Assembly (NCBI GenBank): GCA_030602545.1
Contig: JAUVZN010000003.1
Span: forward strand, 1 to 32,476
Origin: Candidatus Aerophobota bacterium
GTDB lineage: Bacteria > Aerophobota > Aerophobia > Aerophobales > AE-B3A
Direction of reading: 5' to 3'
DNA length: 32,476 nt
In this document: positions 8,024 through 25,232 of the stretch, piece after piece
How the letters are laid out: each line of letters begins with the position of its first letter
Numbering within the stretch: the stretch's first letter is position 1
Notes under the pieces: model-generated
What the model was told of the DNA's origin: nothing
Databases searched by the model: none
Seen by the model: the letters and a program-made list of their open reading frames with translations, nothing else
Program-made: the position numbers and the translations under genes

Positions 8024-8060
8024 TTGACAGATGTAAAGGATTGTGTATAATGTATACAAT
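8024..8060 (+). promoter_or_regulatory. sigma70 promoter with overlapping GntR-type operator
   Basis: TTGACA (8024-8029), 16 nt spacer, TATAAT (8046-8051). The imperfect palindrome ATTGTGTATA-A-TGTATACAAT (8040-8060) covers the -10. Confidence 0.7.
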
Positions 8061-8273
8061 CATTGAGGGGTGTTTTGATTGGTTGGAATTTCAGTAGAAT
8101 CCGAATGATTCAAAACAAGGAAGAGTTCCGTACTTAAAGTCGAAATTCTCTAAAAACGTAAGATCTCTAAAAATCAAGATATTCAGAGTAACAGCCCAGT
8201 TTTCCGAGAATTGCGTCAGAGATAAAATCAAGCCCGATGAGCTCGGGAGTTCAGAGGAAAGGATCAAAGGAAT

Positions 8274-8960
8274 ATGCAGTTTAAATTCCCAGAACCGCCA
8301 AGGCTCAATAGTCGTCCTAGTTTGAGTGAAGCTGTCTATGAGATGATCAAACAGAGGCTGCTCAGTCAGGAGCTGGAACCAGGCACCAAGCTCAGGGAGG
8401 AGGATTTAGCAGATCAGCTGGGGGTGAGTAGAACCCCGGTGAGAGAGGCCATAAACAAGTTGGAGCGGGAGGGATTGGTGGAGATCATTCCCCGCTATGG
8501 TACCTTCGTGGCCAATATCTCTTCCAAAGATGTGGAGGAAATTTACCAGATTAGAGAAGCTCTGGAGTGTCTCGCCATGAGATTAGCCCTGCCTCGATTC
8601 AGTAAGGATAAACTTCTAGAGCTGGCCCGTATTCATAAAGAGTGCAAAGTTCCTTTAGAGAAGGGGGACTTTGATCCCTTCATCAAAGTAGATACGGCCT
8701 TTCATGATCTTTTAGTAAAACTTTCAAAAAACAAGAGATTAATTCGTTTCATGAGTAATCTGAACAATCAGATAAGACTAGGAAGACTGGAGTCTTTCTC
8801 CGTACCGGGCCGAGCAAGAAAATCCCTTGCCGAACACCAGAGAATAATCGAGGCCATGCTGGAAGGGAATGCTGAGGAAGCAGAGAACCTGGTTAGACAG
8901 CACAGCCGAAACGTTAAAGATAATATACTCTATTTTCTGAAAATGAAAAAAAGAGACTAA
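8274..8960 (+). CDS. GntR family transcriptional regulator (FadR subfamily, FCD domain)
   Basis: wHTH LADQLGVSRTPVREAINKLEREGLV. FCD motifs D-TAFH and EHQRIIEAM...QH. Confidence 0.95.
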   Translation: MQFKFPEPPRLNSRPSLSEAVYEMIKQRLLSQELEPGTKLREEDLADQLGVSRTPVREAINKLEREGLVEIIPRYGTFVANISSKDVEEIYQIREALECLAMRLALPRFSKDKLLELARIHKECKVPLEKGDFDPFIKVDTAFHDLLVKLSKNKRLIRFMSNLNNQIRLGRLESFSVPGRARKSLAEHQRIIEAMLEGNAEEAENLVRQHSRNVKDNILYFLKMKKRD

Positions 8961-8982
8961 TTTTTGTAAAGGAGGTGTGATG

Positions 8983-10326
8983 ATGGTGAGGAAACTAAGC
9001 AAGGAGGAGCTTCTAGCCAAAGCTGAAGAGCCAAAAAAGTACGCTATGAAGTACCATCCCTTCTATCGTGGGAAAATCGGGGTGGAGCTTAAAGCTCCGG
9101 TAAGAGATTATAATGATTTTGCTATCTGGTACACTCCTGGCGTGGCTGAACCCTGTAAGGCCATCCATCAAGATACTTCAACTGTTTTTGAGTACACCAA
9201 TCGGGCAAATTTTGTGGCCATAGTTACTGATGGCACCAGAGTACTTGGTCTGGGTGATATTGGTCCAGAGGCTGCCCTACCGGTAATGGAGGGAAAGGGT
9301 ATGCTTTTTAAGTATCTGGGGGGTGTGGATGCTTTTCCCATATGCCTCGATACCAAAGATCCTGATGAGATAATCAGAGCCGTAAAATGGCTGGCTCCCA
9401 CCTTTGGGGGGATAAACCTGGAGGATATCGCCAAGCCCAAGTGTTTTTATATCCTGGATCAACTAGGAAAAGATCTGGATATTCCCGTGTGGCACGATGA
9501 TCAGCAGGGCACAGCCCTGGTTAATCTGGCGGGTTTAATGAGTGCTTTGAAGGTGGTGGGAAAGAGAATTGATGATATCTCCATAGCCTTTATAGGGGCA
9601 GGAGCGGCTAACATTAACTGCGTCAAATACATCATTCTGGCTGGAGCCGATCCAGATCGAATGATTATGGTGGACAGCAAGGGTATCCTCAATCCAGAAA
9701 GGACCGAACTCAAGGAAACCGAACCAACCAAGTGGGCACTTTGTGAGAAGACAAACAAAGAGGAGAGACGCGGCGGAATAAAGGAAGCTGTGAAGGGAGC
9801 CGATGTCTGCATCGCTCTTTCTCACTCAGGGCCGGGGGTCATTGAAAAAGAGTGGGTGGCTGACATGGCTGATGAGGCTATTCTTTTTGCCTGCGCCAAT
9901 CCTATCCCTGAGATATGGCCCTGGGAAGCAAGGGAGGCCGGAGTCAGGATTGTGGCTACCGGTCGTTCTGATTTCCCCAACCAGGTAAACAATTCTTTAG
10001 GTTTTCCCGCGGTTTTCAGAGGAGCTCTGGATGTAGGTGCTAAGATGATAACGGACGAGATGTGTATCACTGCCTCTCAGGCTATATCCGGGTATGCGGA
10101 AAAGAAAGGTCTTTCTGATGAATACATAATCCCTACTATGGGCGAGACAGAAATGTTTGTTGAGGAAGCGGTGGCGGTAGGATTGAAAGCCATAGAGCAG
10201 GGAGTGGCCAGAATGAAAAAGAGTGCTGAAGAGCTCAGAGAAAGCGCTTCCTCAGCCATAAAGATGGCTCAGGAAACGGTGAGGCTGCGGATGGATAAGG
10301 GGTTTATCCAGCCTCCTCCAAAGTAA
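8983..10326 (+). CDS. NAD(P)-dependent malic enzyme
   Basis: YTPGVAEPC, TDGTRVLGLGDIG, VMEGK, INLEDI, HDDQQGTA, GAGAA and TGRSDFPNQVNN. Start could be 8977, 8980 or 8983; 8983 has the best spacing from GGAGGT. Confidence 0.95.
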   Translation: MVRKLSKEELLAKAEEPKKYAMKYHPFYRGKIGVELKAPVRDYNDFAIWYTPGVAEPCKAIHQDTSTVFEYTNRANFVAIVTDGTRVLGLGDIGPEAALPVMEGKGMLFKYLGGVDAFPICLDTKDPDEIIRAVKWLAPTFGGINLEDIAKPKCFYILDQLGKDLDIPVWHDDQQGTALVNLAGLMSALKVVGKRIDDISIAFIGAGAANINCVKYIILAGADPDRMIMVDSKGILNPERTELKETEPTKWALCEKTNKEERRGGIKEAVKGADVCIALSHSGPGVIEKEWVADMADEAILFACANPIPEIWPWEAREAGVRIVATGRSDFPNQVNNSLGFPAVFRGALDVGAKMITDEMCITASQAISGYAEKKGLSDEYIIPTMGETEMFVEEAVAVGLKAIEQGVARMKKSAEELRESASSAIKMAQETVRLRMDKGFIQPPPK

Positions 10327-10371: not shown

Positions 10372-11217
10372 ATGAAACAAATTCATGTGGACAGCATTAT
10401 AGAGGTGGTTCGAAATATTTGTCAGGAGGCTAATTTCTATTTAGGGGATGATGTTCAGAGGGCCCTTGAAGAGTCCCTTAAGATAGAGGAATCACCCACG
10501 GGAAAGACCATCATAGAGCAAATTCTGGAAAATGCTGAGATTGCCCGCAAACACCGCGTCCCCATGTGTCAGGATACCGGCGCAGCCGTTTTTTTCGTGG
10601 AGCTAGGGCAGGAGGCTCAAGTAGTAGGGGGAGATTTTACTGAAGCTATAAATGAAGGAGTGCGTCAGGGATACAGGGAAGGGTATCTGCGTAAATCTAT
10701 GGTCAATGATCCCCTCATGGATCGAAAAAACACTCAGGACAATACTCCTGCCATTATTCATACCCGGGTAGTTCCTGGCGACAAATTAAAGATAACCTTT
10801 GCTCCCAAGGGTGGTGGGTCGGAGAATATGAGCGTTGTCAGGATGATGAAGCCTGCTGATGGGGTTGAGGGAGTAAGGGATTTTGTGGTGGACTGGGTAA
10901 AAAGATCTGGAGGAAATCCCTGCCCCCCTATTATTGTGGGAGTGGGCATTGGTGGAACTTTTGAGAAATGTGCTGAGCTTGCTAAAATATCCCTCCTCAG
11001 GGAGTTGGGCAGGCTTAATGCGGATCCTCGCTTTGCCTCTCTGGAGAAGCAGCTCAAAGAGGAGATAAATGATTTGGGGATTGGACCCATGGGATTGGGA
11101 GGAAGAGTAACTGCTCTGGCTGTTCACATAGAAACCCATCCCTGTCATATTGCTTCTCTTCCGGTAGCGGTGAATATTCAGTGCCATGCAGCAAGACATA
11201 AGAGCGTCACTCTTTAA
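10372..11217 (+). CDS. Class I Fe-S fumarate hydratase, alpha subunit (fumarase/tartrate dehydratase family)
   Basis: PMCQDTG, KGGGSEN, GNPCPP, GIGPMGLGG and CHIASLPVAVNIQCHA. Confidence 0.92.
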   Translation: MKQIHVDSIIEVVRNICQEANFYLGDDVQRALEESLKIEESPTGKTIIEQILENAEIARKHRVPMCQDTGAAVFFVELGQEAQVVGGDFTEAINEGVRQGYREGYLRKSMVNDPLMDRKNTQDNTPAIIHTRVVPGDKLKITFAPKGGGSENMSVVRMMKPADGVEGVRDFVVDWVKRSGGNPCPPIIVGVGIGGTFEKCAELAKISLLRELGRLNADPRFASLEKQLKEEINDLGIGPMGLGGRVTALAVHIETHPCHIASLPVAVNIQCHAARHKSVTL

Positions 11218-11262
11218 GTATATCAAAAAGTGAGGGGGATTCAGAGCAAAGGAGGTTCATTC

Positions 11263-11823
11263 ATGTCAAGGAAAGTTAGACTAAACACTCCCCTGAAGGA
11301 AGAAAAGGTAACCAGTCTCAGAGCTGGTGATGAAGTTCTTCTTAACGGCACCATTTATACGGGTAGAGACGCTGCCCACCAGAGACTGCTTGATTTATTG
11401 GAAAAGGGGAAGGAGCTACCCTTTGATGTAAAAGGACAAATCATCTACTATGTGGGTCCCTCTCCTGCCAAGCCCGGCACTCCTATAGGTTCCTGTGGTC
11501 CTACTACCAGCTATCGGATGGATTCTTACGCTCCTGCTTTGATGAAAATTGGACTCAAGGGAATGATTGGTAAAGGCCCTCGGGGGAAAGAAGTCGTAGA
11601 GGCCATGAAGAGATACAAGGCGGTTTATTTTGCTGCGGTGGGAGGTGCAGCCGCCCTTATAGCCAGATCGGTTAAGTCTTCCCGGATTGTAGCCTATGAA
11701 AATCTGGGAACGGAGGCTATCAGGGAGCTTGAAGTTGAGGATTTTCCGGTAATTGTGGCCAATGATGTCCTGGGAAACGACCTCTATGAGGAGGGAATAA
11801 GGAAATACAGTCGGAGGAAATAG
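11263..11823 (+). CDS. Class I Fe-S fumarate hydratase, beta subunit
   Basis: GRDAAH, GPTTSYRMD, MIGKG and GGAAAL. ATG at 11263 follows AAGGAGG. Confidence 0.92.
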   Translation: MSRKVRLNTPLKEEKVTSLRAGDEVLLNGTIYTGRDAAHQRLLDLLEKGKELPFDVKGQIIYYVGPSPAKPGTPIGSCGPTTSYRMDSYAPALMKIGLKGMIGKGPRGKEVVEAMKRYKAVYFAAVGGAAALIARSVKSSRIVAYENLGTEAIRELEVEDFPVIVANDVLGNDLYEEGIRKYSRRK

Positions 11824-11838: not shown

Positions 11839-12267
11839 ATGGCCAAGGTGGAAGAATATGATATGCCTGATGAGCTTTACTACCACAAGGAGTTTATGTG
11901 GGTAAGGGTAGAAGGTGAGGAGGCAGTGGTTGGTTTAAATGATTTCTCCCAGAAGCTAGCCGGTGAGATAAGTTATATTGAAATGCCTGAAGAGGGAGAT
12001 GAGGTCAAGCAGGACGAAGCCATAGGCTCTTATGAAACGGGCAAGTGGTTGGGTAAACTCTATGCACCTGTCTCCGGAGAGGTAACGGCTATGAATGAAG
12101 AAGTTGAGGATGAGCCAACTCTGGTAAATAAGGATCCTTATGGAGAAGGGTGGCTTTTTAAAATAAAGATGGGTGACCCTGCCCAGCTCGATAATTTAAT
12201 GAAGGGAGAAGAAGCGATTGAGTGGTTAAGAGGAGAAATAGCCAAACACGCCAAGGAAAAAAAATAA
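11839..12267 (+). CDS. gcvH: Glycine cleavage H-like lipoyl carrier protein (LbpA-like)
   Basis: H-protein fold motifs YYHKEFMWVR, VGLNDFSQKLAGEI, APVSGEV and VNKDPYGEGW. The lipoyl-Lys is in ETGKW. Confidence 0.9.
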   Translation: MAKVEEYDMPDELYYHKEFMWVRVEGEEAVVGLNDFSQKLAGEISYIEMPEEGDEVKQDEAIGSYETGKWLGKLYAPVSGEVTAMNEEVEDEPTLVNKDPYGEGWLFKIKMGDPAQLDNLMKGEEAIEWLRGEIAKHAKEKK

Positions 12268-13316
12268 TGTATGTATTTAATCTGGATAAACTTTCTGGGC
12301 AGCAATCTATGCTTATCTTCCATCTTCTTGCACGAATGGGTGTAGAAGCTTTAGTATTAGTTTCTCCAAAAATTCCTCTGGCAAGTATAGGATATTTCCA
12401 GAATGCTGAGGAAGAAATGGATCTCCGATTTTGCAAAAAGACGAATATTCCTGTAATGAGGCGAGAGGTGGGAGGAGGGGCTACATATTTAGATGAAAAT
12501 CAGATATTTCATCAAGTAATCATAAAGAGAGATAATCCCATATTTTCCCGAAACATAAGTGAAAATTATGAGAGATTTTCTCTTCCAGTAATAGAGACTT
12601 ACAGAGAATTTGGAATTGAGACAGGTTTTCATCCTGTAAACGATATTCTTACTAAAGAGGGAAGAAAGATTGATGGTGAAGGAAGTGGAGATATTGGAGA
12701 TTGCTTTGTTTGGGTGGGAGGAATTCTCTTAGATTTTGATTACCAAGTGATGAGCAGAGTATTAAAAGTCCCTGAGGAAAAATTTAGAGATAAGATATAT
12801 AAAAGCATGAAAGAGAATTTAACTACGATGAAGAAGGAGCTGGGGGAGATTCCTTCACGGGAAGAAATTAAATCTGTTTTAATTGAAAAATTTGAAAAGA
12901 TTTTTGGAAAGCTTGAGCCAGCGAATCTTACTTCCACAATGATTAGAGGAATGGAGAAGCTTGAAAAAGAGTTTACTTCCCCGGCTTTTCTTCTTAAGAA
13001 AACGCCGAGAATCTCCAAGGGTGTAAAAATAAGGGAAGGAGTAGAGGTTATTTACGGAATCCATAAGGCAAAAGGTGGATTGATAAGAGCTGCTCAGGAA
13101 GTAGAAAAAGAGATAATAAATGAGATTAGTCTCTCCGGTGATTTCACATTTTATCCAAAAGATTATCTTGAAGGATTGGAGGGAAAACTTAAAGGAAATG
13201 TTCGGGAAAAAAGTCTGTTAAACTCTAAAATAGAGGAATTCTATGATAAGGAGAAAGTTCAATCTCCCGGTGTTGAATCGGAAGACTTTTTAAAGGCAAT
13301 GAAAGTGGAGGAATAG
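12267..13316 (+). CDS. lplA: Lipoate-protein ligase A family protein (catalytic plus C-terminal domain)
   Basis: RREVGGGATYLD, PVNDI, RKIDGEG and C-terminal KAKGGLIR...SGDF. The ATG overlaps the gcvH stop (TAATG). Confidence 0.9.
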   Translation: MYVFNLDKLSGQQSMLIFHLLARMGVEALVLVSPKIPLASIGYFQNAEEEMDLRFCKKTNIPVMRREVGGGATYLDENQIFHQVIIKRDNPIFSRNISENYERFSLPVIETYREFGIETGFHPVNDILTKEGRKIDGEGSGDIGDCFVWVGGILLDFDYQVMSRVLKVPEEKFRDKIYKSMKENLTTMKKELGEIPSREEIKSVLIEKFEKIFGKLEPANLTSTMIRGMEKLEKEFTSPAFLLKKTPRISKGVKIREGVEVIYGIHKAKGGLIRAAQEVEKEIINEISLSGDFTFYPKDYLEGLEGKLKGNVREKSLLNSKIEEFYDKEKVQSPGVESEDFLKAMKVEE

Positions 13317-13318
13317 AA

Positions 13319-13726
13319 ATGAGGACGGAAATTTCTATTAAGAACACCAAAAGTAAGTTCTTAGGTAAGGTAGAAGAGTTGAGTGGAGAGAGCATTTACG
13401 CTTGTTATCAGTGCGGGAAATGTTCTGCAGGTTGTCCCAGTATATCAGAGATGGATATATCTCCCAGTGAGATCATCCGCCTGGTTCAACTAGGTGAGGA
13501 AAAAGAGGTTTTAAATTCTAAAACAATCTGGATTTGCGCTTCCTGTTTTACCTGTGTTACCCGTTGTCCTAAAGGGGTAGATTTAGCAAAAATTATGGAA
13601 TCTCTCAGGCAGATTAATCTGAGGAAAAATGTTGATTATGTTAGTCCTTTATCTATTCCCAAGGAGATACTTTCTCAAGTTCCTCAAATAGCTTTAGTTA
13701 GCAGTCTTCGTAAATTCAGTGCTTGA
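13319..13726 (+). CDS. hdrC: Heterodisulfide reductase subunit C-like (short, 2x[4Fe-4S])
   Basis: CYQCGKCSAGCP and IWICASCFTCVTRCP; adjacent to hdrB. Confidence 0.88.
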   Translation: MRTEISIKNTKSKFLGKVEELSGESIYACYQCGKCSAGCPSISEMDISPSEIIRLVQLGEEKEVLNSKTIWICASCFTCVTRCPKGVDLAKIMESLRQINLRKNVDYVSPLSIPKEILSQVPQIALVSSLRKFSA

Positions 13727-13748
13727 TAATATTATGAAAGAGGCAAAG

Positions 13749-14636
13749 GTGAAGATTTCTTATTTTCCAGGATGTACCCTAAAGACGATGGCAAAAGATT
13801 TTGAAGATTCAGCCTTAGCTTCTGCATCTTGTTTAGGTATAGAGCTGGTGGAACTTCCTCGATGGAACTGTTGTGGAACAGTCTATTCTTTAACTTCTGA
13901 TGACTTAATCCATCAAGTGGCTCCTATTCGTAATCTTATTCGGGTTAAAGAACAGGAAGATAACCGGGTGGTGACTCTCTGTTCTATGTGTTATCATACT
14001 TTAAAGAGAGCAAATAAATTAGTAAGAGAAGATAGAGAGAAACTGGATAAGCTTAATAATCTTATGTACAGAGAAGATGTGAAATATGATGGAGAAATTG
14101 AAGTTTTACATCTTTTGGAGATTTTAAAAAATGAGGTAAGTTTTAATCAGATTGCCAAGAAGGTAAAGATACCTCTTAAAGAACTAAAGGTAGCTCCTTA
14201 TTATGGTTGCCTGCTCCTGCGCCCTCCAGAGATAGGGTTAGATGATGCTGAAAATCCCACTATTTTAAAGGATTTTCTGGAATCTATTGGGGCAGAAGTG
14301 ATTGATTATCCCTATCAAACAGAATGTTGTGCTTCCTATCATACTGTGGTAAATGTAGATTTGGTTGTTGAACGGGCTCACGATATTTTGAGCTCAGCTA
14401 TTAATCAGGGAGCAGAAGCAATTGTTTTAAGTTGTCCCTTATGCGGATTTAATTTGGATAATCGACAAAAAGAGATAAAAGAGAAGTTTTCAGACTTTAA
14501 AGGTATACCGGTATTCTATTTTACTCAACTTTTGGCTCTTTCTTTAGGGCTTGATGAGAAGGTTTGTGGATTTGAATTGAATTTTGTGGACCCTCGCCAT
14601 TTGTTAAAAAGTAAACATTTAACAGGTAGAGTATAA
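13749..14636 (+). CDS. hdrB: Heterodisulfide reductase subunit B-like (two CCG domains)
   Basis: YFPGC, WNCCG, CSMC, YYGC, ECCA and CPLC. Start is uncertain (13734 ATG or 13749 GTG). Confidence 0.92.
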   Translation: MKISYFPGCTLKTMAKDFEDSALASASCLGIELVELPRWNCCGTVYSLTSDDLIHQVAPIRNLIRVKEQEDNRVVTLCSMCYHTLKRANKLVREDREKLDKLNNLMYREDVKYDGEIEVLHLLEILKNEVSFNQIAKKVKIPLKELKVAPYYGCLLLRPPEIGLDDAENPTILKDFLESIGAEVIDYPYQTECCASYHTVVNVDLVVERAHDILSSAINQGAEAIVLSCPLCGFNLDNRQKEIKEKFSDFKGIPVFYFTQLLALSLGLDEKVCGFELNFVDPRHLLKSKHLTGRV

Positions 14637-14637
14637 A

Positions 14638-16593
14638 ATGAGTAGAATAGGTGTTTTTGTTTGTCACTGTGGTTTAAATATTGCAGGTACAGTAGATGTA
14701 GAAAAAGCAGCCAGGCTTATGAGTAATTACCCGGGTGTTATATATGCTAGTGATTATGTATATATGTGTTCCGATCCCGGTCAAGATATGATAAAAGAGG
14801 TGGTCAAAGAGAAAAAGCTTGATGGTATAGTGGTAGCTGCTTGCTCACCCACAATGCACGAGATCACCTTTCGTAATACAGTAGCTTCCATAGGACTAAA
14901 TCCTTATAGATGTGAGATTGCCAATATAAGAGAACAATGTAGCTGGGTGCACCAAGATAATAAAGAGATAGCTACGGAAAAAGCAGTACAGATTATTGAG
15001 GCTACTGTAGAAAAATTGAAGTTAGACAAATCTCTCGTTCCTCTAAGTATTCCCATTACTAAAAAAGCCCTGGTCATCGGAGGAGGAATAGCTGGTATTC
15101 AAGCTTCTTTAGATATTGCTGATAGTGGATATGAGGTTGTTTTAGTAGAGAAGAATCAGTCGATTGGGGGACACATGCTTCAACTTTCAGAAACTTTTCC
15201 TACCCTCGATTGCCCTCAATGTATTGCTACTCCAAGGATGGTCCAGGTAGGTCAGCATCCAAAGATAAAACTTCTTGCCTATTCGGAGGTGGAAGAAGTC
15301 TCCGGTTATGTGGGGAATTTCAAAGTAAAAATTAGGAGAAAAGTTTCTTTTGTTGATTGGGATAAATGCACGGGTTGCGGTCTCTGTATAGAAAAATGTC
15401 CGGTAAAGGTTCTTTCGGAATTTGATGAGTTTTTAGCTAAAAGGAAAGCTATTTACACTCTATTTCCCCAGGCTGTTCCTAATAAACCTGTGATTGATAG
15501 TAATAATTGCCTTTATTTCACTAAAGGAAAATGTAGGGCCTGTGAGAAGAATTGCTCAGTAAAAGCTATCAATTTTGAACAAAAAGACTCTTTCATTGAA
15601 GAGGATGTAGGGGCAATCATTGTAGCCACGGGTTATGATCTTATGGATAAAGCAGAAATTGGTGAATATGGATATGGAAAATATGAGGATGTGATAGATG
15701 GTTTACAGGCAGAAAGAGTCCTTGCTCCTGCTGGTCCTACCAATGGTATACCTTATAGACCCTCCGATGGTAAGATTCCTAAAGAAGTGGTGTTTATTCA
15801 ATGTGTAGGTTCACGAGACCCGGAGCATTATTATCCATATTGTTCAAAGGTATGTTGTATGTATACTATTAAACAGGCTATGCTTTATAAACACGCTGTT
15901 CCTGATGGTCAGGCTTATGTATTTTATATGGATATTCGGTGCAACGGAAAGGGATATGAGGAATTTCTTCAGAGAGGAATAGAAGAAGACAGGATTCTTT
16001 ATATAAGAGGTAGGGTTTCCAAAGTATTTAAGGATGGAGATAAAATCGAAGTTTGGGGAGCGGATACACTTACGGGAAGGAAGATTGAAATTTCGGCGGA
16101 TATGGTTGTTCTGGCTATGGCTATGGTTCCCAGCCAAGGGGTAAAGAAATTAGCTGAGAAATTGAGACTGGCTACAGATGAGTATGGTTTCTTAACAGAA
16201 GCTCATCCTAAGCTTCGTCCGGTTGAAAGTCTTACTGCCGGCTGTTTTCTTGCTGGAGCTGCTCAGGCACCAAAAGATATTCCTGAAGCTGTGGCTCAGG
16301 CATCCGGGGCGGCAAGTAAGGTGCTCAGTCTTTTTTCTCAAGATGTATTTTACCACGAGCCGATTATAGGCAGTGTTGATGAGGAAGTCTGTGTAGGATG
16401 TGGCAACTGTGTAAATATTTGTGCTTATGATGCCGTTGAACTTGATTTAGTAACCAAGGTAGCCAAGGTTAATCCAGCTCTTTGTGAAGGGTGCGGTGCC
16501 TGTAGTGCTGCCTGTCCTTCGGGAGCAATGCAACAGAACAATTTTGGCAAAAGGCAGATATTTGAAATGGTAGATGCTTTTACTAAAGGTTAA
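14638..16593 (+). CDS. hdrA: Heterodisulfide reductase subunit A (canonical length)
   Basis: RIGVFVCHCG, NIREQCSWVH, GGGIAG, TFPTLDC, inserted ferredoxin, QCVGSRD...CSKVCCMYTIK, EAHPKLRPV and C-terminal 2x[4Fe-4S]. Confidence 0.95.
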   Translation: MSRIGVFVCHCGLNIAGTVDVEKAARLMSNYPGVIYASDYVYMCSDPGQDMIKEVVKEKKLDGIVVAACSPTMHEITFRNTVASIGLNPYRCEIANIREQCSWVHQDNKEIATEKAVQIIEATVEKLKLDKSLVPLSIPITKKALVIGGGIAGIQASLDIADSGYEVVLVEKNQSIGGHMLQLSETFPTLDCPQCIATPRMVQVGQHPKIKLLAYSEVEEVSGYVGNFKVKIRRKVSFVDWDKCTGCGLCIEKCPVKVLSEFDEFLAKRKAIYTLFPQAVPNKPVIDSNNCLYFTKGKCRACEKNCSVKAINFEQKDSFIEEDVGAIIVATGYDLMDKAEIGEYGYGKYEDVIDGLQAERVLAPAGPTNGIPYRPSDGKIPKEVVFIQCVGSRDPEHYYPYCSKVCCMYTIKQAMLYKHAVPDGQAYVFYMDIRCNGKGYEEFLQRGIEEDRILYIRGRVSKVFKDGDKIEVWGADTLTGRKIEISADMVVLAMAMVPSQGVKKLAEKLRLATDEYGFLTEAHPKLRPVESLTAGCFLAGAAQAPKDIPEAVAQASGAASKVLSLFSQDVFYHEPIIGSVDEEVCVGCGNCVNICAYDAVELDLVTKVAKVNPALCEGCGACSAACPSGAMQQNNFGKRQIFEMVDAFTKG

Positions 16594-16691
16594 TAAAAAG
16601 TTATCTTTGCTTTAAAACAGATAAATTATCCAAATTTAGATTTTCATGTTATCTTTATGATAAAATTTAATCATAGCCAGTAGGGGGAGAT

Positions 16692-17453
16692 ATGAAGAAA
16701 GAAAAGAGTATTATGGAAAAAATTGCTGAGGCAAATAAGACAGTTACCAAAGGGGTGGATGAGAAAGAGGTAAAACACTGGGTAACAATTTACATAATGG
16801 GAAAACCATGCAGGGTTCCAGCGGCTCTGACAATTATGCAGGCTATGGAGTATGCCGGGTATAAATTTATCAGGTCTTGCGGGTGCAGAGCAGGATTTTG
16901 TGGAGCTTGTTCCACTGTGTACAGAGAGAAAGGAGAATATAAACTCCAGACCGCTATGGCCTGTCAAACAAGAGTTGAGGATGGGATGTATCTGGTTCAA
17001 ATTCCATTTGCTCCAGCAGAAAAAGCTATTTATGATATTAATGAAGAAGAATATGATATATCCGTATTTTTCAAATATTACCCGGAAGTTGCCAGATGTG
17101 TCTCTTGTAATACTTGTACAAAATCATGCCCTCAGGATCTTGAAGTAATGGATTATGTTCAAGCAGCAATCAAAGGTGATTTTGCTCAAGTGGCTGAGGG
17201 CTCCTTTGAATGTATTCAATGTGGACTTTGTGCCATGAGGTGCCCTGCTGATATTGTGCAATATCATCTGGCTCAATTAGCAAGAAGAATGTATGGAAGA
17301 TATGGCTCTCTTGAAGAAAAAAATGTTAAAAAAAGGGTCGAGGAAATAAAAAAAGGTAAGTATGACAAGGAGTTTGATAGAGTTATGAGTCTTGGTGGCA
17401 CCGAGTTTAAGAATCTTTATACAGAACAACAAAGGACACGTGAAGTTTACTAA
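16692..17453 (+). CDS. Fumarate reductase/succinate dehydrogenase iron-sulfur subunit-like protein
   Basis: [2Fe-2S] motif CGCRAGFCGAC...AC plus CVSCNTCTKSCP and CIQCGLCAMRCP; immediately upstream of the flavoprotein. Confidence 0.8.
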   Translation: MKKEKSIMEKIAEANKTVTKGVDEKEVKHWVTIYIMGKPCRVPAALTIMQAMEYAGYKFIRSCGCRAGFCGACSTVYREKGEYKLQTAMACQTRVEDGMYLVQIPFAPAEKAIYDINEEEYDISVFFKYYPEVARCVSCNTCTKSCPQDLEVMDYVQAAIKGDFAQVAEGSFECIQCGLCAMRCPADIVQYHLAQLARRMYGRYGSLEEKNVKKRVEEIKKGKYDKEFDRVMSLGGTEFKNLYTEQQRTREVY

Positions 17454-17467
17454 AAAGGAGGAAAGAT

Positions 17468-19132
17468 TTGGCTGAACTTAAATTCATAGGCGGTTATCCT
17501 GAATATATGCGTGAATCAATCAAGCTTGTTGAAAGGACACGACCAGAGAGAATAGGAAAATTGCCTCCTCAGATGACCCCTGAGGAGAGAGAAGAAATTT
17601 TAAATCGTTATCATCCGGATTACGTTCCCGGCGGCAAAAGATGTATAAAAATTGGTCCCAATCGAGGAGACATCGCTCCTAACGAAGTAGTGGATCTGCT
17701 TGAGGCATATCCAGTGATAGACCCTGAAGAGATTGATCTAAGTGAAGTGGATTATGAACCGGATATTTTAATAATAGGAGGTGGTCTTGCGGGAACAAGC
17801 GCTGCTCTTCTGGCAAATGATTATGGAATTCCTGCAGAGAAGATTTTGCTTACCAATAAACTAAGACATGGAGATGCTAACTCTATGATGGCCCAAGGTG
17901 GTACTCAGGCAGCAGACCGCCCAGAAGATAGTCCACTAATTCATTATATTGATGGTCTGGGGGGAGGGCATTTTACGAATAAGCCTGATGTACTAAGAGC
18001 GCTTGTGGAAGATGCTCCTCTGGTAATGCAGTGGCTTGAGAAGCTTGGAGCTATATTTGATAAAGACCCTGATGGTAATTTTATGGAACTAACAGGTGGC
18101 GGCACCTCAAGAAGGAGGATGCACGCTTGCAGGGATTATACGGGAATGGAGGAGCTGCGAGTTCTAAGGGATGAGTTTAGAAATAGAAAAATTCCGGTTC
18201 TTGAATTTTATGCGGCTGTTGAACTTATTACTAATTCTGAGAATAAAGTAGCTGGTGCAGTCTTGTGGGGTCTGGAAACAGGGGACTATAAAATTGTAAA
18301 GGCTAAAGCAACTATCCTGGCTACCGGTGGTTTCGGAAGGCTTCATATAAGAGGATTCCCAACCACTAACCATTATGGTGCCACTTGTGATGGAGTTGTT
18401 CTTGCATATCATGTTGGAGCAAAGTTAAGGGATGCGGATACTGTTCAATATCATCCTACTGGAGCTGCGTATCCTCAGCAAATAATAGGCCTTCTTCTTA
18501 CTGAAAAATTAAGAACCAGCGGAGCCCAGCCAGTGAATAAAGACGGTGAAGCATTTGTATTTCCTCTTGAACCACGGGATGTAGAAGCTTCTGCCTTTAT
18601 AAGAGAATGTTATACCAGGGATAAGGGAATGGTGACACCTACAGGAATGAGAGGAATATGGTTAGACACTCCTCTTATTGATATTATTAATGGTGAAGGT
18701 AGAACTGAACGTTCTTTTCCAGCTATGGTGAGGATGTTTAAAAGATTTGGAGTTGATATGATAAAAGACCCTGTCCTTGTTTTCCCCACACTTCATTATC
18801 AGAATGGGGGGGTGGAGACAGACCCTGAAGGGAAGACAAATATAGAAGGCTTGTTTGTTGCCGGTGAGATATCAGGTGGTGTGCATGGCAAGAATAGACT
18901 TATGGGGAACTCAACTCTTGATTGTATGGTTTTTGGTAGAAGAGCGGGAATGTATAGTGCGGAATATGTAAAATTGGCTAAAAGCAACGGAAAACTATCC
19001 TTAGAGCATGTCAAAAAATATGTAAATATGGTCAAAGAAGCTGGTATAAAGTCTGAGAGAAAGGCTCCCATACTTCTTCCAGAGTATAGAGGCAGAGCAG
19101 TATTAGCAAGAAAAATTGATATATTTTATTAA
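17468..19132 (+). CDS. Fumarate reductase/succinate dehydrogenase flavoprotein (soluble, TfrA-like)
   Basis: GGGLAG, SMMAQGG, ILATGGFG, QYHPT, TEKLR, EPRD, HYQNGG and HGKNRLMGNS, i.e. the dicarboxylate-site His/Arg residues. TTG start after AAGGAGG. Confidence 0.88.
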   Translation: MAELKFIGGYPEYMRESIKLVERTRPERIGKLPPQMTPEEREEILNRYHPDYVPGGKRCIKIGPNRGDIAPNEVVDLLEAYPVIDPEEIDLSEVDYEPDILIIGGGLAGTSAALLANDYGIPAEKILLTNKLRHGDANSMMAQGGTQAADRPEDSPLIHYIDGLGGGHFTNKPDVLRALVEDAPLVMQWLEKLGAIFDKDPDGNFMELTGGGTSRRRMHACRDYTGMEELRVLRDEFRNRKIPVLEFYAAVELITNSENKVAGAVLWGLETGDYKIVKAKATILATGGFGRLHIRGFPTTNHYGATCDGVVLAYHVGAKLRDADTVQYHPTGAAYPQQIIGLLLTEKLRTSGAQPVNKDGEAFVFPLEPRDVEASAFIRECYTRDKGMVTPTGMRGIWLDTPLIDIINGEGRTERSFPAMVRMFKRFGVDMIKDPVLVFPTLHYQNGGVETDPEGKTNIEGLFVAGEISGGVHGKNRLMGNSTLDCMVFGRRAGMYSAEYVKLAKSNGKLSLEHVKKYVNMVKEAGIKSERKAPILLPEYRGRAVLARKIDIFY

Positions 19133-19191
19133 ATAAAAGAAAAAAGTATAATCCGGTTTTTGTAGAGTTTTAATAGGTGAGGGTTTCTAAG

Positions 19192-22100
19192 ATGGAGAAA
19201 AATGTTGGGGCGGTAATGGTAGTTGGCGGCGGAATCGGCGGAATTCAGGCCTCTTTGGATCTGGCAGAATCCGGATTTAAAATATATTTAGTTGATAAAA
19301 AACCTGGTATTGGTGGAGTGATGGCACAACTGGACAAAACTTTTCCTACCAATGATTGTTCAATGTGTATTCTTTCTCCAAAACTTTTGGGAACAGGAAG
19401 AGATGAGAATATTGAAATTATGAGTTACACGGAAGTAGAAAGAGTGGAAGGCGAAGCAGGAGATTTTAAGGTTACTTTAAGGAAAAAACCCCGATATGTA
19501 GATCTAGATAAATGCACTGGCTGTGCAGAGTGTGTGGAGAGCTGTCCTGTAGAAGTTTTAACTGAGTTTGAGGAGGGTTTAAGCAACAGGAAAGCTATTT
19601 ATCGATTGTACCCTCAGGTAGTTCCCAATGTTTTTACTATAGATAAAAATGAAAATAAACCTCCCTGTAGATTAACCTGCCCGGGAGGAGTAAATGTGCA
19701 AGGTTACATCGCTTTAATTTCCCAGGGTAAATTTAAGGAAGCTTATGAGTTAATCAGGGAGAGAGTTCCTTTTCCGGGAGTTTTGGGTCGTATCTGTCAT
19801 CATCCTTGTGAAGAGAAGTGTAATAGGAAGGATTTTGATGAACCGTTAGCTATTGCCTCTTTAAAAAGGTTTGTTGCTGATTATGTAGCTGAGCATCAAG
19901 AAGAACTTCTCTCTCCCAAAAAGGATGAAGAAAAAGAGTCTAAAGAGCCTCCAAAAATTAGAGAGGAAAAAGTAGCTATTATTGGAGCCGGGCCAGCGGG
20001 ACTGACCTGTGCTTACGATTTAGCGAAGTTAGGATACAAAGTTACTGTATTTGAAGCTCAAAGCTCTCCCGGAGGGATGATGTATGCAGGGATTCCCGGA
20101 TATCGCCTATCCAAAGAAGTTCTGAAAAGGGAGATTAAACAGATTGAAGAGATAGGGGTAAAGATTCTTCTTAATACCCCTATTCGCTCAAAAGAGGAGT
20201 TCGAGAAATTAAGGAGGAATTATCAGGCGATATTTACTGCCATTGGAGCCCGGAAAAGCAAGAAATTAAGATTGGAGGGCTCAGATTTAAAAGGTGTACT
20301 TTATGGAGTAGAATTTCTTAAACATGTCAATGAAGGAAAAGAGATTACCATAGGAGAAAGAGTAGCCGTAATTGGTGGAGGAAATGTGGCCATTGATGTA
20401 GCTTTATCCTCATTGAGAGTGGGAGCAGAGGAGGTTCATCTCTTCTGTCTTGAGTCTCGTGAGGAGATGCCAGCATTTGAATGGGAAATTGAAGAAGCAG
20501 TAAGGGAGGGAATAAACCTTCATTGTTCCAGAGGACCAAAGAGGATTATAGGTAAAGAGGAAAAAGTTGGTGGATTGGAAACTATTCTTTGTAGCTCAGT
20601 TTTTGATGCTGAAGGAAGGTTTAGCCCCAAGTTTAAAGAGAAAACGGAGTCAACTATTGATGTAGATACAGTAATAATCGCCATAGGTCAAGAAGCGGAT
20701 TTTGCAGGATTTAAGGAAGTTAGAATTACTCCTCACCAGACTATCGATGTGGATAAGATTAGTTTAGCTACTTCTGTTCCCGGTGTCTTTGCTGGAGGTG
20801 ATGTAGTCAGTGGTCCCGCTTCAGTAATTGAAGCTATAAGTCAGGGACATGAGGCAGCTATCTCCATTGATAGATCTTTAAAATCTGAAGACTTAATCGA
20901 AGGCAGAGAAAAGATAGAGGAAGAAGCAGCGGAAGCTCCAGAAAAAGAAGTTGCCTTAGAAAAGAGAGAAATAATGCCTGCTCTTTCTCTCCAGGATAGA
21001 AAAAGGGATTTTAAAGAGATTGAGTTGGGATTCACTGAAAAGATGGCAATAGATGAGGCAAAGAGATGTCTTGACTGTGGTATCTGTTCGGAGTGCTTAG
21101 AGTGTGTGAAGACCTGTAAAGCAGAAGCAATCCTTCCTGATATGGTTGAAGAGAAAGTGGAAATAAAGGTTGGTTCCATTATCCTCTCTTTTGGTTTTGA
21201 TGAATTTAATCCGAGGGTAAAAGGAGAGTATGGATATGGGAGATTTCCTAATGTGATATCCAGTATTGAATTTGAGAGAATTTTATCTGCCTCAGGCCCC
21301 TATGAAGGTCAGGTAGTGAGACCCTCGGATAAGAAATTACCTAAGAAAATTGCCTGGATTCAGTGTGTGGGCTCGCGGGATATAAAATCTGGCTATCCCT
21401 ATTGTTCGTCTGTTTGCTGTATGTATGCTACCAAGGAGGCAGTTATTGCTAAAGAACATGCGGGTTCTGAGCTTACCTGCCATATTTACTTTATGGATAT
21501 GCGCTGTTTTGGTAAGGATTTTGATAAATATTATGAGAGAGCAGAGAATGAGCATGGGATAGAATACAGGAGATGCAGAGTCTCCTCTGTAGAGGAAGAC
21601 CTCCCAACAGATAACTTAAGAATAAAGTATGAGACTGAAGAGGGGAATTTAAAAGAAGAAGAGTATGATTTAGTAGTGTTATCGGTTGGTCTAACGCCTT
21701 CTGAGGATGTATTAAGGATAAGTGAAAAGTTAGGCCTTCAATTAAATGAGTATAACTTCATTAAATCAGATGAGCTATTTCCTGTAGACACAACAAGAAA
21801 AGGAATATATGCTTGTGGAGCAATTTTAGAGCCAAAAGATATCCCGGAGACAGTAACTCAGGCAAGCGGAGCTGCAGCCAGGGCCTCATCTTTGCTTTCC
21901 TCTGCTCGGAGAACTTTAATCAAGGAAAAGGAGTATCCCCCAGAGATAGATGTGAGTGGAGAGGCTCCAAGAATAGGGGTATTCGTCTGCCACTGTGGAA
22001 TAAATATTGGAGGGGTGGTTGATGTTCCCGCTGTTGTTGAATATACCAAGAGATTACCCAATGTAGTTTATGCTGAAGATAATCTTTATACCTGTTCCCA

Positions 22101-23634
22101 GGATACCCAGGAAAGAATAAAGGAAGCCATAAAGGAGCATAAATTAAACAGAGTGGTAGTTGCTTCTTGCACTCCAAGAACTCACGAGCCTCTTTTCCAG
22201 GAGACCATAAGGGAAGCAGGCTTAAACCCTCATCTTTTTGAGATGGCTAATATTCGTGACCAGGATTCCTGGGTTCATATGAGAGAGCCAGAAAAAGCTA
22301 CGGAAAAAGCCAAAGATTTAGTAAGAATGGCGGTGGCAAAAGCTTGTTTAATAGAGTCCTTACCTAGTTTTTCCTCAGAAGTTATTCAGAAAGGGCTTGT
22401 TATTGGAGGGGGTTTAGCGGGAATGATAGCTGCCTTAAATATAGCTGAACAGGAGTTTGAGGTATATCTTATGGAAAAGGAAGCCGAGTTAGGGGGAAAT
22501 TTAAGAAATCTTCATTATACTCTGGAGAACGAAGATATGCAGAGTTATCTGAAGTCGATAGTTAAAGAGGTAGAAGAGAATCCGAAAATCAAAGTATACA
22601 GGAATGTAAATATCAAAAGTGTAGAAGGATATGTAGGAAACTTTAAGACAACCATAGTACAAAATGAGGAAACTGAAAAGATAGAACTAGAACATGGAGT
22701 AATAGTTGTAGCTACCGGTGCTAAAGAGTCAAAGCCTAAAGAATATTTATATGGAGAAGATGAGAGAATAGTTACTCAGTTAGAACTTGAAGAGATGTTA
22801 GCCAGGCCCGATTCCAAAATTCCCACTCTCAACACTATAGTGATGATTCAATGTGTGGGCTCCAGAGAGAATGAGAGACCCTATTGCAGCCGGGTATGTT
22901 GCAGTGATGCAATGAAGAATGCTCTCAAGATGAAAAAAGAGAATCCTAGGGCAAATATATTTATTTTATATAGAGATATGAGAACCTATGGCTTTAAAGA
23001 AAGCTTCTATCAAGAATCTCGGGAGAAAGGAGTAGTTTTTATAAGATATGATAAGGATAAAAAGCCTTATGTAACCAGAGACGCTGAGGGTTTAACAGTA
23101 GAAGTTTTGGATCCTATTCTTAAAGAGAAACTTCGTATAACTGCTGATCTTCTGGTATTGAGTACAGCTATTATTCCTAATGAAGATAACCAAACTCTTG
23201 CTCAATTATTAAAGGTTCCTTTAACAGAGGATGGATTTTATTTAGAAGCTCATGTGAAACTCCGCCCCGTAGATTTTTCTACTCGGGGTATATTTTTAGC
23301 AGGAATGGCTCATGGTCCAAAGTTTATCAAGGAGACTATTTCTCAAGCTTATGCTGCTGCTGAGAAAGCCTGCAGTGTAATTTGCAAAGATCGTGTTGAG
23401 GCAGAGGCAATTATTGCCCAAGTGAATGAGAGATGGTGCCGGGGATGTGGTATATGTGTCTCAGCATGTCCCTATGAAGCTATAAGTATAGATGAGGAGA
23501 CTAATTTAGCCAAGGTAACCGAGGTGCTTTGTCAGGGTTGTGGTGCCTGTAGCGCTGCTTGTCCCAGTGGAGCTATTCAACAGAAGGGTTTTCAAAGAAA
23601 TCAGATTCTTTCCATGGTGGATATAGCACTATAA
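19192..23634 (+). CDS. hdrA: Large HdrA fusion (HdrL-type): HdrA module with inserted GltD-like NAD(P)H oxidoreductase, followed by a second HdrA module
   Basis: GGGIGG...TFPTNDC; insert with PCRLTCP, GRICHHPCEEKC, GAGPAGL and GGGNVAID; two QCVGSR...CS-x-VCC motifs; internal RIGVFVCHCG and NIRDQDSWVH; C-terminal 2x[4Fe-4S]. Confidence 0.9.
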   Translation: MEKNVGAVMVVGGGIGGIQASLDLAESGFKIYLVDKKPGIGGVMAQLDKTFPTNDCSMCILSPKLLGTGRDENIEIMSYTEVERVEGEAGDFKVTLRKKPRYVDLDKCTGCAECVESCPVEVLTEFEEGLSNRKAIYRLYPQVVPNVFTIDKNENKPPCRLTCPGGVNVQGYIALISQGKFKEAYELIRERVPFPGVLGRICHHPCEEKCNRKDFDEPLAIASLKRFVADYVAEHQEELLSPKKDEEKESKEPPKIREEKVAIIGAGPAGLTCAYDLAKLGYKVTVFEAQSSPGGMMYAGIPGYRLSKEVLKREIKQIEEIGVKILLNTPIRSKEEFEKLRRNYQAIFTAIGARKSKKLRLEGSDLKGVLYGVEFLKHVNEGKEITIGERVAVIGGGNVAIDVALSSLRVGAEEVHLFCLESREEMPAFEWEIEEAVREGINLHCSRGPKRIIGKEEKVGGLETILCSSVFDAEGRFSPKFKEKTESTIDVDTVIIAIGQEADFAGFKEVRITPHQTIDVDKISLATSVPGVFAGGDVVSGPASVIEAISQGHEAAISIDRSLKSEDLIEGREKIEEEAAEAPEKEVALEKREIMPALSLQDRKRDFKEIELGFTEKMAIDEAKRCLDCGICSECLECVKTCKAEAILPDMVEEKVEIKVGSIILSFGFDEFNPRVKGEYGYGRFPNVISSIEFERILSASGPYEGQVVRPSDKKLPKKIAWIQCVGSRDIKSGYPYCSSVCCMYATKEAVIAKEHAGSELTCHIYFMDMRCFGKDFDKYYERAENEHGIEYRRCRVSSVEEDLPTDNLRIKYETEEGNLKEEEYDLVVLSVGLTPSEDVLRISEKLGLQLNEYNFIKSDELFPVDTTRKGIYACGAILEPKDIPETVTQASGAAARASSLLSSARRTLIKEKEYPPEIDVSGEAPRIGVFVCHCGINIGGVVDVPAVVEYTKRLPNVVYAEDNLYTCSQDTQERIKEAIKEHKLNRVVVASCTPRTHEPLFQETIREAGLNPHLFEMANIRDQDSWVHMREPEKATEKAKDLVRMAVAKACLIESLPSFSSEVIQKGLVIGGGLAGMIAALNIAEQEFEVYLMEKEAELGGNLRNLHYTLENEDMQSYLKSIVKEVEENPKIKVYRNVNIKSVEGYVGNFKTTIVQNEETEKIELEHGVIVVATGAKESKPKEYLYGEDERIVTQLELEEMLARPDSKIPTLNTIVMIQCVGSRENERPYCSRVCCSDAMKNALKMKKENPRANIFILYRDMRTYGFKESFYQESREKGVVFIRYDKDKKPYVTRDAEGLTVEVLDPILKEKLRITADLLVLSTAIIPNEDNQTLAQLLKVPLTEDGFYLEAHVKLRPVDFSTRGIFLAGMAHGPKFIKETISQAYAAAEKACSVICKDRVEAEAIIAQVNERWCRGCGICVSACPYEAISIDEETNLAKVTEVLCQGCGACSAACPSGAIQQKGFQRNQILSMVDIAL

Positions 23635-23669
23635 AGAGATTTACTATGAGTATATGAAGGAGGTAATTG

Positions 23670-24092
23670 ATGGCTAATTTTGAGCCAAAGATAGTTGGTT
23701 TTTTGTGTAATTGGTGTACCTATGCGGGAGCAGACCTTGCGGGTACTTCAAGAATGCAATATCCGCCAAATATTAGGCCTATCAGAGTGATGTGTTCGGG
23801 GTCGGTTGATTCTGCTTATGTCCTTCGGGCTTTATTAGAAGGAGCTGATGGAGTCTTTATTGGCGGATGTCATCCCGGAGATTGCCATTATGTGAGTGGA
23901 AATTATAAGGAGAGGAGAAGAATTACTGTTTTGAAAAGTATTTTGAAAACCTTAGGGTTGGATGATAATCGAGTCTGGATTAGGTGGGTCAGTGCCAGCG
24001 AAGGTAAGAGATATGCGGATACTATATCTGAGATGACATCTCATTTGAAAAAATTAGGTCCCAATCCTATAAGTAAGTACTGGTCTTTATAG
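23670..24092 (+). CDS. mvhD: MvhD/FlpD [2Fe-2S] adaptor subunit
   Basis: FEPKIVGFLCNWCTYAGADLAG, RVMCSG, GCHPGDCHY and WVSASEG. Confidence 0.95.
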   Translation: MANFEPKIVGFLCNWCTYAGADLAGTSRMQYPPNIRPIRVMCSGSVDSAYVLRALLEGADGVFIGGCHPGDCHYVSGNYKERRRITVLKSILKTLGLDDNRVWIRWVSASEGKRYADTISEMTSHLKKLGPNPISKYWSL

Positions 24093-24103
24093 AGGTGAAG
24101 GAA

Positions 24104-25231: not shown

Positions 25232-25232
25232 A

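Follow-up and report, generated by a model that had tools for sequence, protein, structure and literature searches.

A GcvH-like lipoyl carrier paralogue and its lipoate-protein ligase encoded directly before hdrCBA in a fumarate reductase operon of Aerophobota

Analysis of a 32,476-nt stretch of DNA from an uncultured sediment bacterium of the phylum Aerophobota (the window; contig C72 of a 1.15-Mb genome, G000, 87% complete) revealed a GcvH-like lipoyl carrier and an LplA-type lipoate-protein ligase encoded directly before the heterodisulfide reductase (Hdr) genes hdrCBA, in an operon that encodes a cytoplasmic, Hdr-linked fumarate reductase. The sequence of the carrier places it as a paralogue outside glycine cleavage, in a separate clade marked by Lys69-Trp70-x-Gly72-Lys73 (the K-W clade). 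The carrier, with or without the ligase, is an insert at one fixed site, between fumB and hdrC, in part of the phylum. Overall, our analysis suggests, with a probability of about 0.4, that it is an accessory lipoyl dithiol/disulfide carrier working at the CCG sites of Hdr proteins.

The carrier, the ligase and their junction with hdrC

The open reading frame (ORF) of the carrier, 142 amino acids (aa) long, is preceded by AGGAGG 7 nt upstream, and its TAA (12265-12267) shares one A with the ATG of the ligase (12267), giving TAATG and a gap of -1 nt. From this ATG the ligase comprises 349 aa. The GTG listed as its start, at 12222, is unlikely, since 13 of the 18 rows of the ligase alignment (12 homologues and the window ligase) begin at the methionine of MY.F without an N-terminal extension. 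The start of hdrC at 13319 lies 2 nt past the ligase stop, and the gaps from the carrier to hdrA are -1, 2, -8 and 1 nt. The -8 refers to a GTG start of hdrB (13719; 305 aa), which would place 8 nt of hdrB within hdrC; with most homologues 292-300 aa long, translation more probably begins at the ATG at 13734. The initial annotation, made from the letters of the window, had placed a GcvH-like carrier with its ligase directly before hdrCBA, and the ORFs, the TAATG overlap and the 2-nt spacing bear this out. The same GcvH-ligase-hdrC junction was seen again in five loci of other assemblies (L008, L011-L014), and the pairing is therefore not chance; a further locus, L015, begins within the ligase. 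Among the 29 largest window ORFs scanned with Pfam there was no gcvT, gcvP, E2 or E3 and no TusA, DsrE or rhodanese domain, in agreement with the initial annotation. The sole matches to dihydrolipoyl dehydrogenase models in the window were weak, partial and inside HdrL and HdrA.

The lipoyl lysine of the carrier, Lys69, stands in the context YETGKWLGK, and the protein has no cysteine and an isoelectric point (pI) of 4.40, so that the ETGKWLG context and the cysteine-free composition claimed at the outset hold. The carrier matches Pfam GCV_H with 136 bits, and its best solved-structure matches are all glycine-cleavage H proteins, with Thermus 1ONL at 101 bits. An AlphaFold 2 model (predicted local distance difference test score 92.8) predicts a plain H-protein fold with Lys69 at the tip of a beta-hairpin between strands 61-67 and 71-75, and this model compares with 1ONL at template modelling (TM) scores of 0.86/0.95. 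The carrier also exceeds the NCBIfam GcvH equivalog cut-offs (NF002270, 139 against 117 bits; TIGR00527, 128.1 against 115.85 bits). Because of this fold and these scores, automatic annotation will name the carrier GcvH.

The same structure matches, TM scores and NCBIfam models would suit a second ordinary H protein serving gcvT and gcvP encoded elsewhere. However, the genome carries a canonical gcvT-gcvH-gcvPA operon on contig C74 with an H protein of its own, which is 128 aa long, has ESVKA at the lysine and is 40% identical to the window carrier. A first tree of 23 canonical Aerophobota H proteins (14 of them adjoining gcvT or gcvP) and 35 carriers, which were neighbours of this ligase or of Hdr genes or close sequence matches to the window carrier, parted the two sides by a branch with 100/98 support. 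A second tree, to which E. coli GcvH and two canonical-type proteins from another phylum were added and from which the long-branch rows L066 and L089 were left out, separated 35 K-W-clade rows from 26 canonical rows with 100/99 support, in 200 of 200 bootstrap trees. Tryptophan directly follows the lipoyl lysine in 35 of 37 clade members and in none of the 23 canonical proteins. E66, T67, G68, K69, W70, G72 and K73 are invariant across 41 carrier sequences, and ETGKW in the window carrier replaces the canonical lysine context, ES(V/S/A/I)K(A/T). No K-W-clade member adjoined gcvT or gcvP in the sampled loci, and no Hdr gene occurred in any of the 23 canonical Aerophobota gcvH loci (about 3.3 kb each). 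The phylogeny that had been suggested as a check on the initial annotation thus sets the carrier apart from canonical GcvH, and service as a second glycine-cleavage H protein is very improbable.

Analysis of the ligase revealed two Pfam domains above cut-off, LplA-B_cat (PF21948, 117 bits) and Lip_prot_lig_C (PF10437, 28.1 bits). Residues R65, R66, G70, G71, D76 and K134 (RR-GGG-D and K134) are invariant in 18 sequences, and alignment to 6JOM and 1VQZ pairs the RRxxGGG...D motif and K134 with their counterparts there. We take K134 to be equivalent to the adenylate-binding lysine and the motif residues to have their usual roles. The ligase remains under the equivalog cut-offs (TIGR00545, 135.7 against 280 bits; LplAB, 85.7 against 550 bits) and matches E. 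coli LplA with 23 bits. In the ligase tree its clade comprises 27 rows, 45-100% identical to the window ligase, and is parted by a branch of 3.33 (100/99) from four LipS2-adjacent-type ligases of other Aerophobota, three of which directly adjoin LipS2-like genes; E. coli LplA stands on a separate long branch of 5.55. On these alignments and trees the protein is classed as an LplA-type lipoate-protein ligase of a distinct and highly conserved clade, and its position next to the carrier agrees with the dedicated ligase first described. The genome encodes LipB, LipA, Rnf and one dihydrolipoyl dehydrogenase (535 bits), and has one E2 and one E3 in need of lipoate. LipS2 was not found in the genome (best match 25.6 bits against a cut-off of 270), LipS1 not having been searched for.

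Linkage to Hdr genes and occurrence among relatives

A total of 84 loci were sampled by way of the ligase, four from genomes (with a single ligase protein as query) and 80 from metagenomes; they include near-copies, and the counts are not independent. Of the 84 loci, 40 have a CCG-domain protein and 20 a GcvH-like ORF within 6 kb of the ligase. When the count is limited to the 28 loci that extend 3 kb or more to each side, a CCG protein occurs within 6 kb in 20, a carrier in 16, both in 15 and neither in seven. The density of CCG ORFs is 1.84 per 10 kb at distances of up to 2 kb from the ligase and drops to 0.09-0.42 per 10 kb at 4-10 kb in these loci. Repeated layouts were GlcD-HdrD-carrier-DsrK-like-NarI-like-ligase, ligase-hdrC-hdrB-hdrL-carrier and hdrC-hdrB-ligase-hdrL-OsmC, while the fumarate reductase layout was confined to Aerophobota-type loci (6/84). 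In L013 the order is carrier-ligase-hdrC-hdrB-(537 nt)-frdB-frdA, without hdrA, which is the layout of a split thiol:fumarate reductase. Two genomes of the window's own genus (G013, G014) have fumAB-carrier-hdrC, with the carrier abutting hdrC and no ligase between, so the junction of carrier and Hdr is kept independently of the ligase. A role at CCG sites is favoured by the fixed insertion at the start of hdrC, by carrier-hdrC junctions that persist where the ligase is missing, by the hdrC-hdrB-frdB-frdA layout of L013 and by the many different CCG enzymes beside the ligase clade.

Two further candidates were tried and rejected. The protein unk163, upstream of the ligase in nine loci, was considered as a hidden lipoyl domain, and its sole Pfam match was weak and HAD-like. 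A dedicated E3 beside the carrier was dropped because the PNDR/Lpd-like cluster proved mixed, with a thioredoxin reductase in L017 and a protein nearest to CoA-disulfide reductase in L011.

Besides the near-copies among the sampled loci and the carrier's scores above the GcvH cut-offs, several results weigh against a role at CCG sites. No Hdr gene and no carrier lies near the ligase in seven of the 28 well-flanked loci. In a second phylum, where the ligase was found in 10 of 151 genomes (E <= 1e-60), Hdr adjacency is clear in just three (G031, G032, G182), and five of eight newly fetched ligase loci there show neither Hdr adjacency nor anything related; one ligase locus of this phylum adjoins DsrE and DsrH. 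CCG proteins also occur in succinate:quinone reductases, which have no thiol substrate. Among 31 Aerophobota genomes the ligase (at least 59% identity) occurs in five and an FrdA-like protein in nine. G011 has fumB-(99 nt)-hdrC-hdrB-hdrA-frdB-frdA-hdrL and G007 has fumB-(1 nt)-hdrCBA-...-frdBA, both with no carrier or ligase there. A K-W-clade profile search of genomes 74-91% complete gave no match in G009, G010 and G011 (74-84% complete); in G007, G023, G024 and G021 it returned canonical-clade or canonical-motif copies only, along with a divergent 185-aa relative in G007 that lacks the K-W motif. By this search the K-W carrier is absent from five of the nine Aerophobota genomes with an FrdA-like protein, and the Hdr-Frd complex therefore evidently works without it. 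That sister genomes have this operon and lack the carrier argues for an optional plug-in and against a core substrate.

The pair could instead belong to housekeeping lipoate salvage or relay, scavenging lipoate or octanoate for E2 and H proteins, with hdr adjacency marking an insertion site only. GcvH acts as the donor in the lipoyl relay of Bacillus, the window carrier passes the GcvH cut-offs, and the one E2 and one E3 of the genome need lipoate. The absence of the cassette from the otherwise identical operons of G011 and G007, the seven well-flanked ligase loci with neither partner nearby and the unrelated contexts of more distant ligases would all be in keeping with such a function. However, LipB, LipA and a canonical H protein are already encoded in the genome, G013 and G014 retain the junction of carrier and hdrC in the absence of the ligase, and the density of CCG ORFs up to 2 kb from the ligase exceeds that at 4-10 kb by a factor of 4 to 20. 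The lipoyl lysine is moreover set among invariant residues that differ from those of canonical GcvH. We consider this explanation unlikely.

Another explanation is thiol protection, whereby the carrier, kept reduced by NAD(P)H-dependent HdrL/HdrCB, would feed lipoyl-dependent peroxidases of the OsmC/Ohr type or repair oxidised thiols and clusters in oxygen-sensitive enzymes. OsmC follows hdrC2-hdrB2-ligase-hdrL in four loci (L044, L066, L087, L089), an OsmC-like peroxiredoxin stands beside the ligase-carrier pair in L128, and thioredoxin and thioredoxin reductase follow carrier and ligase in L017 (11097-12354). A paralogous GcvH-L is reported to shield S. aureus from oxidative stress (PMC12440151). 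In the window the cassette is translationally coupled between fumB and hdrC within a catabolic operon, and no OsmC, peroxiredoxin or thioredoxin gene was found among the scanned ORFs, which makes protection an improbable function for the window carrier.

The host operon

The pair lies in a run of 21 same-strand genes with a largest gap of 129 nt (Table 1). This C4-dicarboxylate/fumarate reductase context was absent from the initial annotation. Promoter-like sites in the window numbered 24, which is not above shuffled sequences (mean 25.3).

Table 1. Features of the window around the carrier-ligase pair and the basis on which each was assigned.
Feature	Position	Strand	Basis
Sigma-70-like promoter, TTGACA-16-TATAAT	8024..8051	+	12/12 consensus positions; consensus match only
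GntR/FCD-family regulator, first gene of the run	8274..8960	+	Pfam GntR, FCD
Malic enzyme	8977..10326	+	Pfam malic, Malic_M; NCBIfam NADP-malic-enzyme subfamily 334 bits, below cut-off
Class I fumarase, alpha and beta	alpha 10372..11217; beta 11230..11823	+	Pfam Fumerase 401 bits, Fumerase_C 215 bits
GcvH-like lipoyl carrier, K-W clade, predicted lipoyl-Lys69	11839..12267	+	Pfam, NCBIfam, AlphaFold 2 model, trees, motif count
LplA-type lipoate-protein ligase	12267..13316	+	Pfam domains, alignment, tree
hdrC, hdrB, hdrA	hdrC 13319..13726; hdrB 13719 or 13734..14636; hdrA 14638..16593	+	Motifs, NCBIfam
FrdB-like iron-sulfur protein, FrdA/TfrA-like flavoprotein	FrdB-like 16692..17453; FrdA/TfrA-like 17468..19132	+	Family matches, site residues
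hdrL (HdrA-GltD-HdrA fusion, 1485 aa), mvhD, frhB-like, second hdrC, hdrB	19177..26629	+	Family matches, motifs
LarA-family isomerase, GlcD-like FAD dehydrogenase, TfrB-like HdrD (third CCG protein)	26759..30526	+	Family matches, motifs
Succinyl-CoA synthetase beta, alpha (sucC, sucD; alpha runs past the window end)	30523..32474	+	Family matches

HdrC has two CxxCxxCxxxCP motifs ([4Fe-4S]). HdrB, HdrB2 and the HdrD-like protein each have two complete CCG motifs, which in HdrB are Cx31CCx35CxxC and Cx38CCx34CxxC. All three HdrCBA proteins score below the methanogen equivalog cut-offs (HdrB 182 against 345 bits, HdrC 76 against 160, HdrA2 790 against 1100), and HdrB scores 171 bits with the SdhE anchor model, the cut-off of which is 500. 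The FrdB-like protein, 253 aa long, has the [2Fe-2S]/2x[4Fe-4S] arrangement and no CCG motif. The FrdA-like protein keeps the fumarate-site residues HPTG, RD, HY and NRL in alignments to FrdA chains and has asparagine in place of the flavin-linking histidine of E. coli-type FrdA, a pattern that we take, as we take the roles of the FrdA residues, to be that of fumarate reducers that do not oxidise succinate. Its sequence suggests that the fumarate reductase of the operon probably binds FAD non-covalently. The best NCBIfam match of the flavoprotein is TfrA (294.6 bits against a cut-off of 718); that of the HdrD-like protein is TfrB, which scores at most 162 against 385 bits, the match being to the C-terminal two thirds of TfrB. 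The first 95 or so residues of the FrdA-like protein (window 17468-17755) form an N-terminal extension unmatched in solved FrdA/SdhA chains, with which alignments begin at residue 96.

Several side observations concern the rest of the operon and its relatives. In the Aerophobetes relative L011 a 445-aa pyridine-nucleotide disulfide oxidoreductase (8197-9534) lies between hdrA and frdB; its nearest family is CoA-disulfide reductase (266 bits against a cut-off of 579), and it could be another thiol/NADH input to the Hdr-Frd complex. The LarA-family nickel-pincer isomerase of the window (NF052515, 563 bits against a cut-off of 400) overlaps the GlcD-like FAD dehydrogenase by 41 nt, and the latter overlaps HdrD by 4 nt. 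These three could form a racemase and a D-2-hydroxyacid dehydrogenase with a CCG subunit, and GlcD-HdrD pairs adjoin the ligase in other loci too. Two more giant HdrL-like frames (1527 and 1051 aa) occur elsewhere in the genome, on contigs C69 and C28. Propionate fermentation via methylmalonyl-CoA was considered and rejected, as no mutase was found. GC content is 0.37-0.41 over the ligase-hdr-frd-hdrL stretch (window 12000-26000) and 0.44-0.49 in the flanks, and a different Aerophobota family has counterparts of the ligase, Hdr and Frd genes with 85-93% identity, against only 56-62% for the fumarase genes; this hints at a separate history of the core cluster.

Proposed role and relation to known systems

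In the role proposed here, the ligase would put octanoate or lipoate on Lys69, with LipA completing the group in the case of octanoate, and the lipoyl/dihydrolipoyl pair would act as a protein-bound disulfide/dithiol couple that HdrB converts at its CCG sites. The other two CCG proteins of the operon would probably also use the lipoyl group of the carrier. Electrons would most likely pass from the dihydrolipoyl carrier to HdrB/HdrC, the HdrA flavin, FrdB, FrdA and fumarate, and HdrA may be able to divert some to ferredoxin. The carrier would thereby be a two-electron link from Hdr-Frd to other dehydrogenases and, via the dihydrolipoyl dehydrogenase of the cell, to NADH, and it may be tied also to the GlcD/HdrD dehydrogenase and to HdrL. 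We infer that the ligase lipoylates the carrier, that the carrier binds HdrB, that electrons run in this direction and that ferredoxin is coupled.

The potential of fumarate is about +0.03 V. That of lipoamide is -0.29 V (Cao 2018, PMC6067878). With these two values dihydrolipoyl could drive fumarate reduction, even with co-reduction of ferredoxin. The same value for the lipoyl group would be too low for a high-potential acceptor of a bifurcating Hdr such as CoM-S-S-CoB (the heterodisulfide of coenzymes M and B), which is a further difficulty for the proposal, since the carrier cannot then simply copy the methanogen scheme. The lipoyl group would be a poor stand-in for the methanogen heterodisulfide as acceptor, and the carrier is therefore favoured as an electron donor or exchange pool. 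A wider version, which we regard as doubtful, would make the K-W clade the general protein-bound heterodisulfide of non-methanogens, for CCG sites of the HdrB/HdrD/DsrK type in many anaerobic bacteria and archaea. HdrCBA-FrdBA would then be a lipoyl-protein-dependent, ferredoxin-coupled (bifurcating) fumarate reductase, able to draw electrons via the carrier pool from a CCG-linked 2-hydroxyacid dehydrogenase and the NAD(P)H-dependent HdrL.

Among the closest described arrangements is the sHdr-LbpA-sLpl(AB) system of Hyphomicrobium denitrificans, Thioalkalivibrio and Aquifex (PMC6067878; Tanabe 2023, PMC10332631; Kumpel 2026 preprint), where likewise a GcvH-like lipoyl protein and a dedicated ligase are encoded with Hdr-type CCG proteins and HdrA, and lipoate is proposed as the redox-active partner of the Hdr-like complex. 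Among Hdr-lipoyl systems, this one alone has been supported by experiment (Cao 2018, PMC6067878). A carrier akin to LbpA would work in the oxidation or reduction of sulfane sulfur with Hdr-type proteins, and two loci are in keeping with this. In G008 (Aerophobota) a carrier 72% identical and a ligase 59% identical to those of the window lie near a two-domain rhodanese, a YeeE-type sulfur transporter and an AsrB/HydG-like flavoprotein, and in L159 the ligase has DsrE and DsrH upstream and NifU downstream. The G008 locus (L166, G008:C9, 1457-11451) also holds FrhB-like proteins and a transposase, and its carrier is of the K-W type.

The likeness to LbpA drawn in the initial annotation was not supported. 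LbpA has two conserved cysteines (Cao 2018, PMC6067878) and a basic ligase-facing surface, with a pI above the divide of about 4.5 from GcvH (Kumpel 2026 preprint), whereas the window carrier has no cysteine and, at pI 4.40, falls on the GcvH side of that divide. Its solved-structure matches included no LbpA. The E-S/T-GKW variants that had been ascribed to LbpA proteins were not confirmed in the main text of Cao 2018, where 'GKW' has no occurrence, the figure supplements being outside this scope. LbpA genes accompany those for sHdr and for sulfur transferases, and sLpl(AB) serves LbpA together with LipS1 and LipS2 (Cao 2018; Kumpel 2026). In the window no sulfur transferase was found among the scanned ORFs, and TusA, DsrE and DsrC were not found in the 87%-complete genome, rhodanese not having been searched for genome-wide. 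The genome likewise gave no LipS2, and the window ligase is far from the ligases that adjoin LipS2-like genes. Hdr genes are represented here by hdrCBA of the methanogen/HdrA2 type with hdrL-mvhD, and not by hdrC1B1A-hyp-hdrC2B2, and the operon is centred on enzymes of malate, fumarate and succinate, a context of fumarate reduction. Sulfur handling by the window carrier is accordingly held to be quite unlikely.

Methanogen TfrAB (NF004900, NF004898) is likewise a soluble FrdA-type flavoprotein with an iron-sulfur protein bearing CCG domains, which oxidises a dithiol pair and reduces fumarate. The window proteins score below its equivalog cut-offs (295 against 718 and 162 against 385 bits), the functions of TfrB are divided among the FrdB-like protein, HdrC and HdrB, HdrA is inserted in most versions of the window-type operon, and the proposed thiol would be a lipoyl protein and not CoM-SH with CoB-SH. 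Frd AB-type genes also stand inside Hdr sets in tubeworm symbionts and Thioflavicoccus, where tfrAB lies among flxABCD-hdrABC and an electron-shuttling or bifurcating complex for fumarate reduction was proposed (Rubin-Blum 2019, PMC6315080). That cluster has Flx for electron input and belongs to an autotrophic reductive tricarboxylic acid cycle, whereas the window has HdrL; the text of the article has no occurrence of 'glycine cleavage' or 'lipo', its figure supplements and tables being outside this scope. In the Ehe cluster of Culexarchaeia GcvH is likewise encoded with SdhA and HdrA2B2C2, and it was suggested that GcvH could carry a disulfide on which HdrB acts (Kohtz 2022, PMC9723716). This archaeal cluster is linked with a membrane [NiFe] hydrogenase and CdhA, and the portion of that article covered here mentions no dedicated ligase and no analysis of carrier clades. 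GcvH-L with LplA2 of Streptococcus and Staphylococcus (PDB 5A35; PMC4518038, PMC12440151) is likewise an extra H-protein paralogue with its own ligase outside glycine cleavage. The window carrier matches 5A35 with 26 bits, against 101 to canonical H proteins, and no sirtuin or macrodomain genes are present here.

In the literature consulted, with the supplements of Cao 2018 and Rubin-Blum 2019 outside its scope, no account was found of a bacterial GcvH-like carrier and ligase with hdrCBA and frdAB, and GcvH as a partner of HdrB was found proposed only in the covered portion of Kohtz 2022 (PMC9723716). New in this study are the fumarate reductase context, the clean split of the paralogue from the genome's own gcvTHP and the evidence of an optional cassette.

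Enzymes of the HdrABC and HdrD type are widespread among anaerobes that synthesise neither coenzyme M nor coenzyme B, and DsrC is the thiol/disulfide partner in sulfate reducers. Outside sulfate reducers, we know of no established thiol/disulfide partner of Hdr. A small, expressible lipoyl protein with its own ligase at the start of hdrC is a testable candidate for such a partner, and the sister genomes that run the operon without the carrier, which speak against the proposal, matter as much. If the link to fumarate reductase is true, it would give deep-sediment fermenters a quinone-independent electron sink in fumarate, which may be energy-conserving, as the genome has Rnf.

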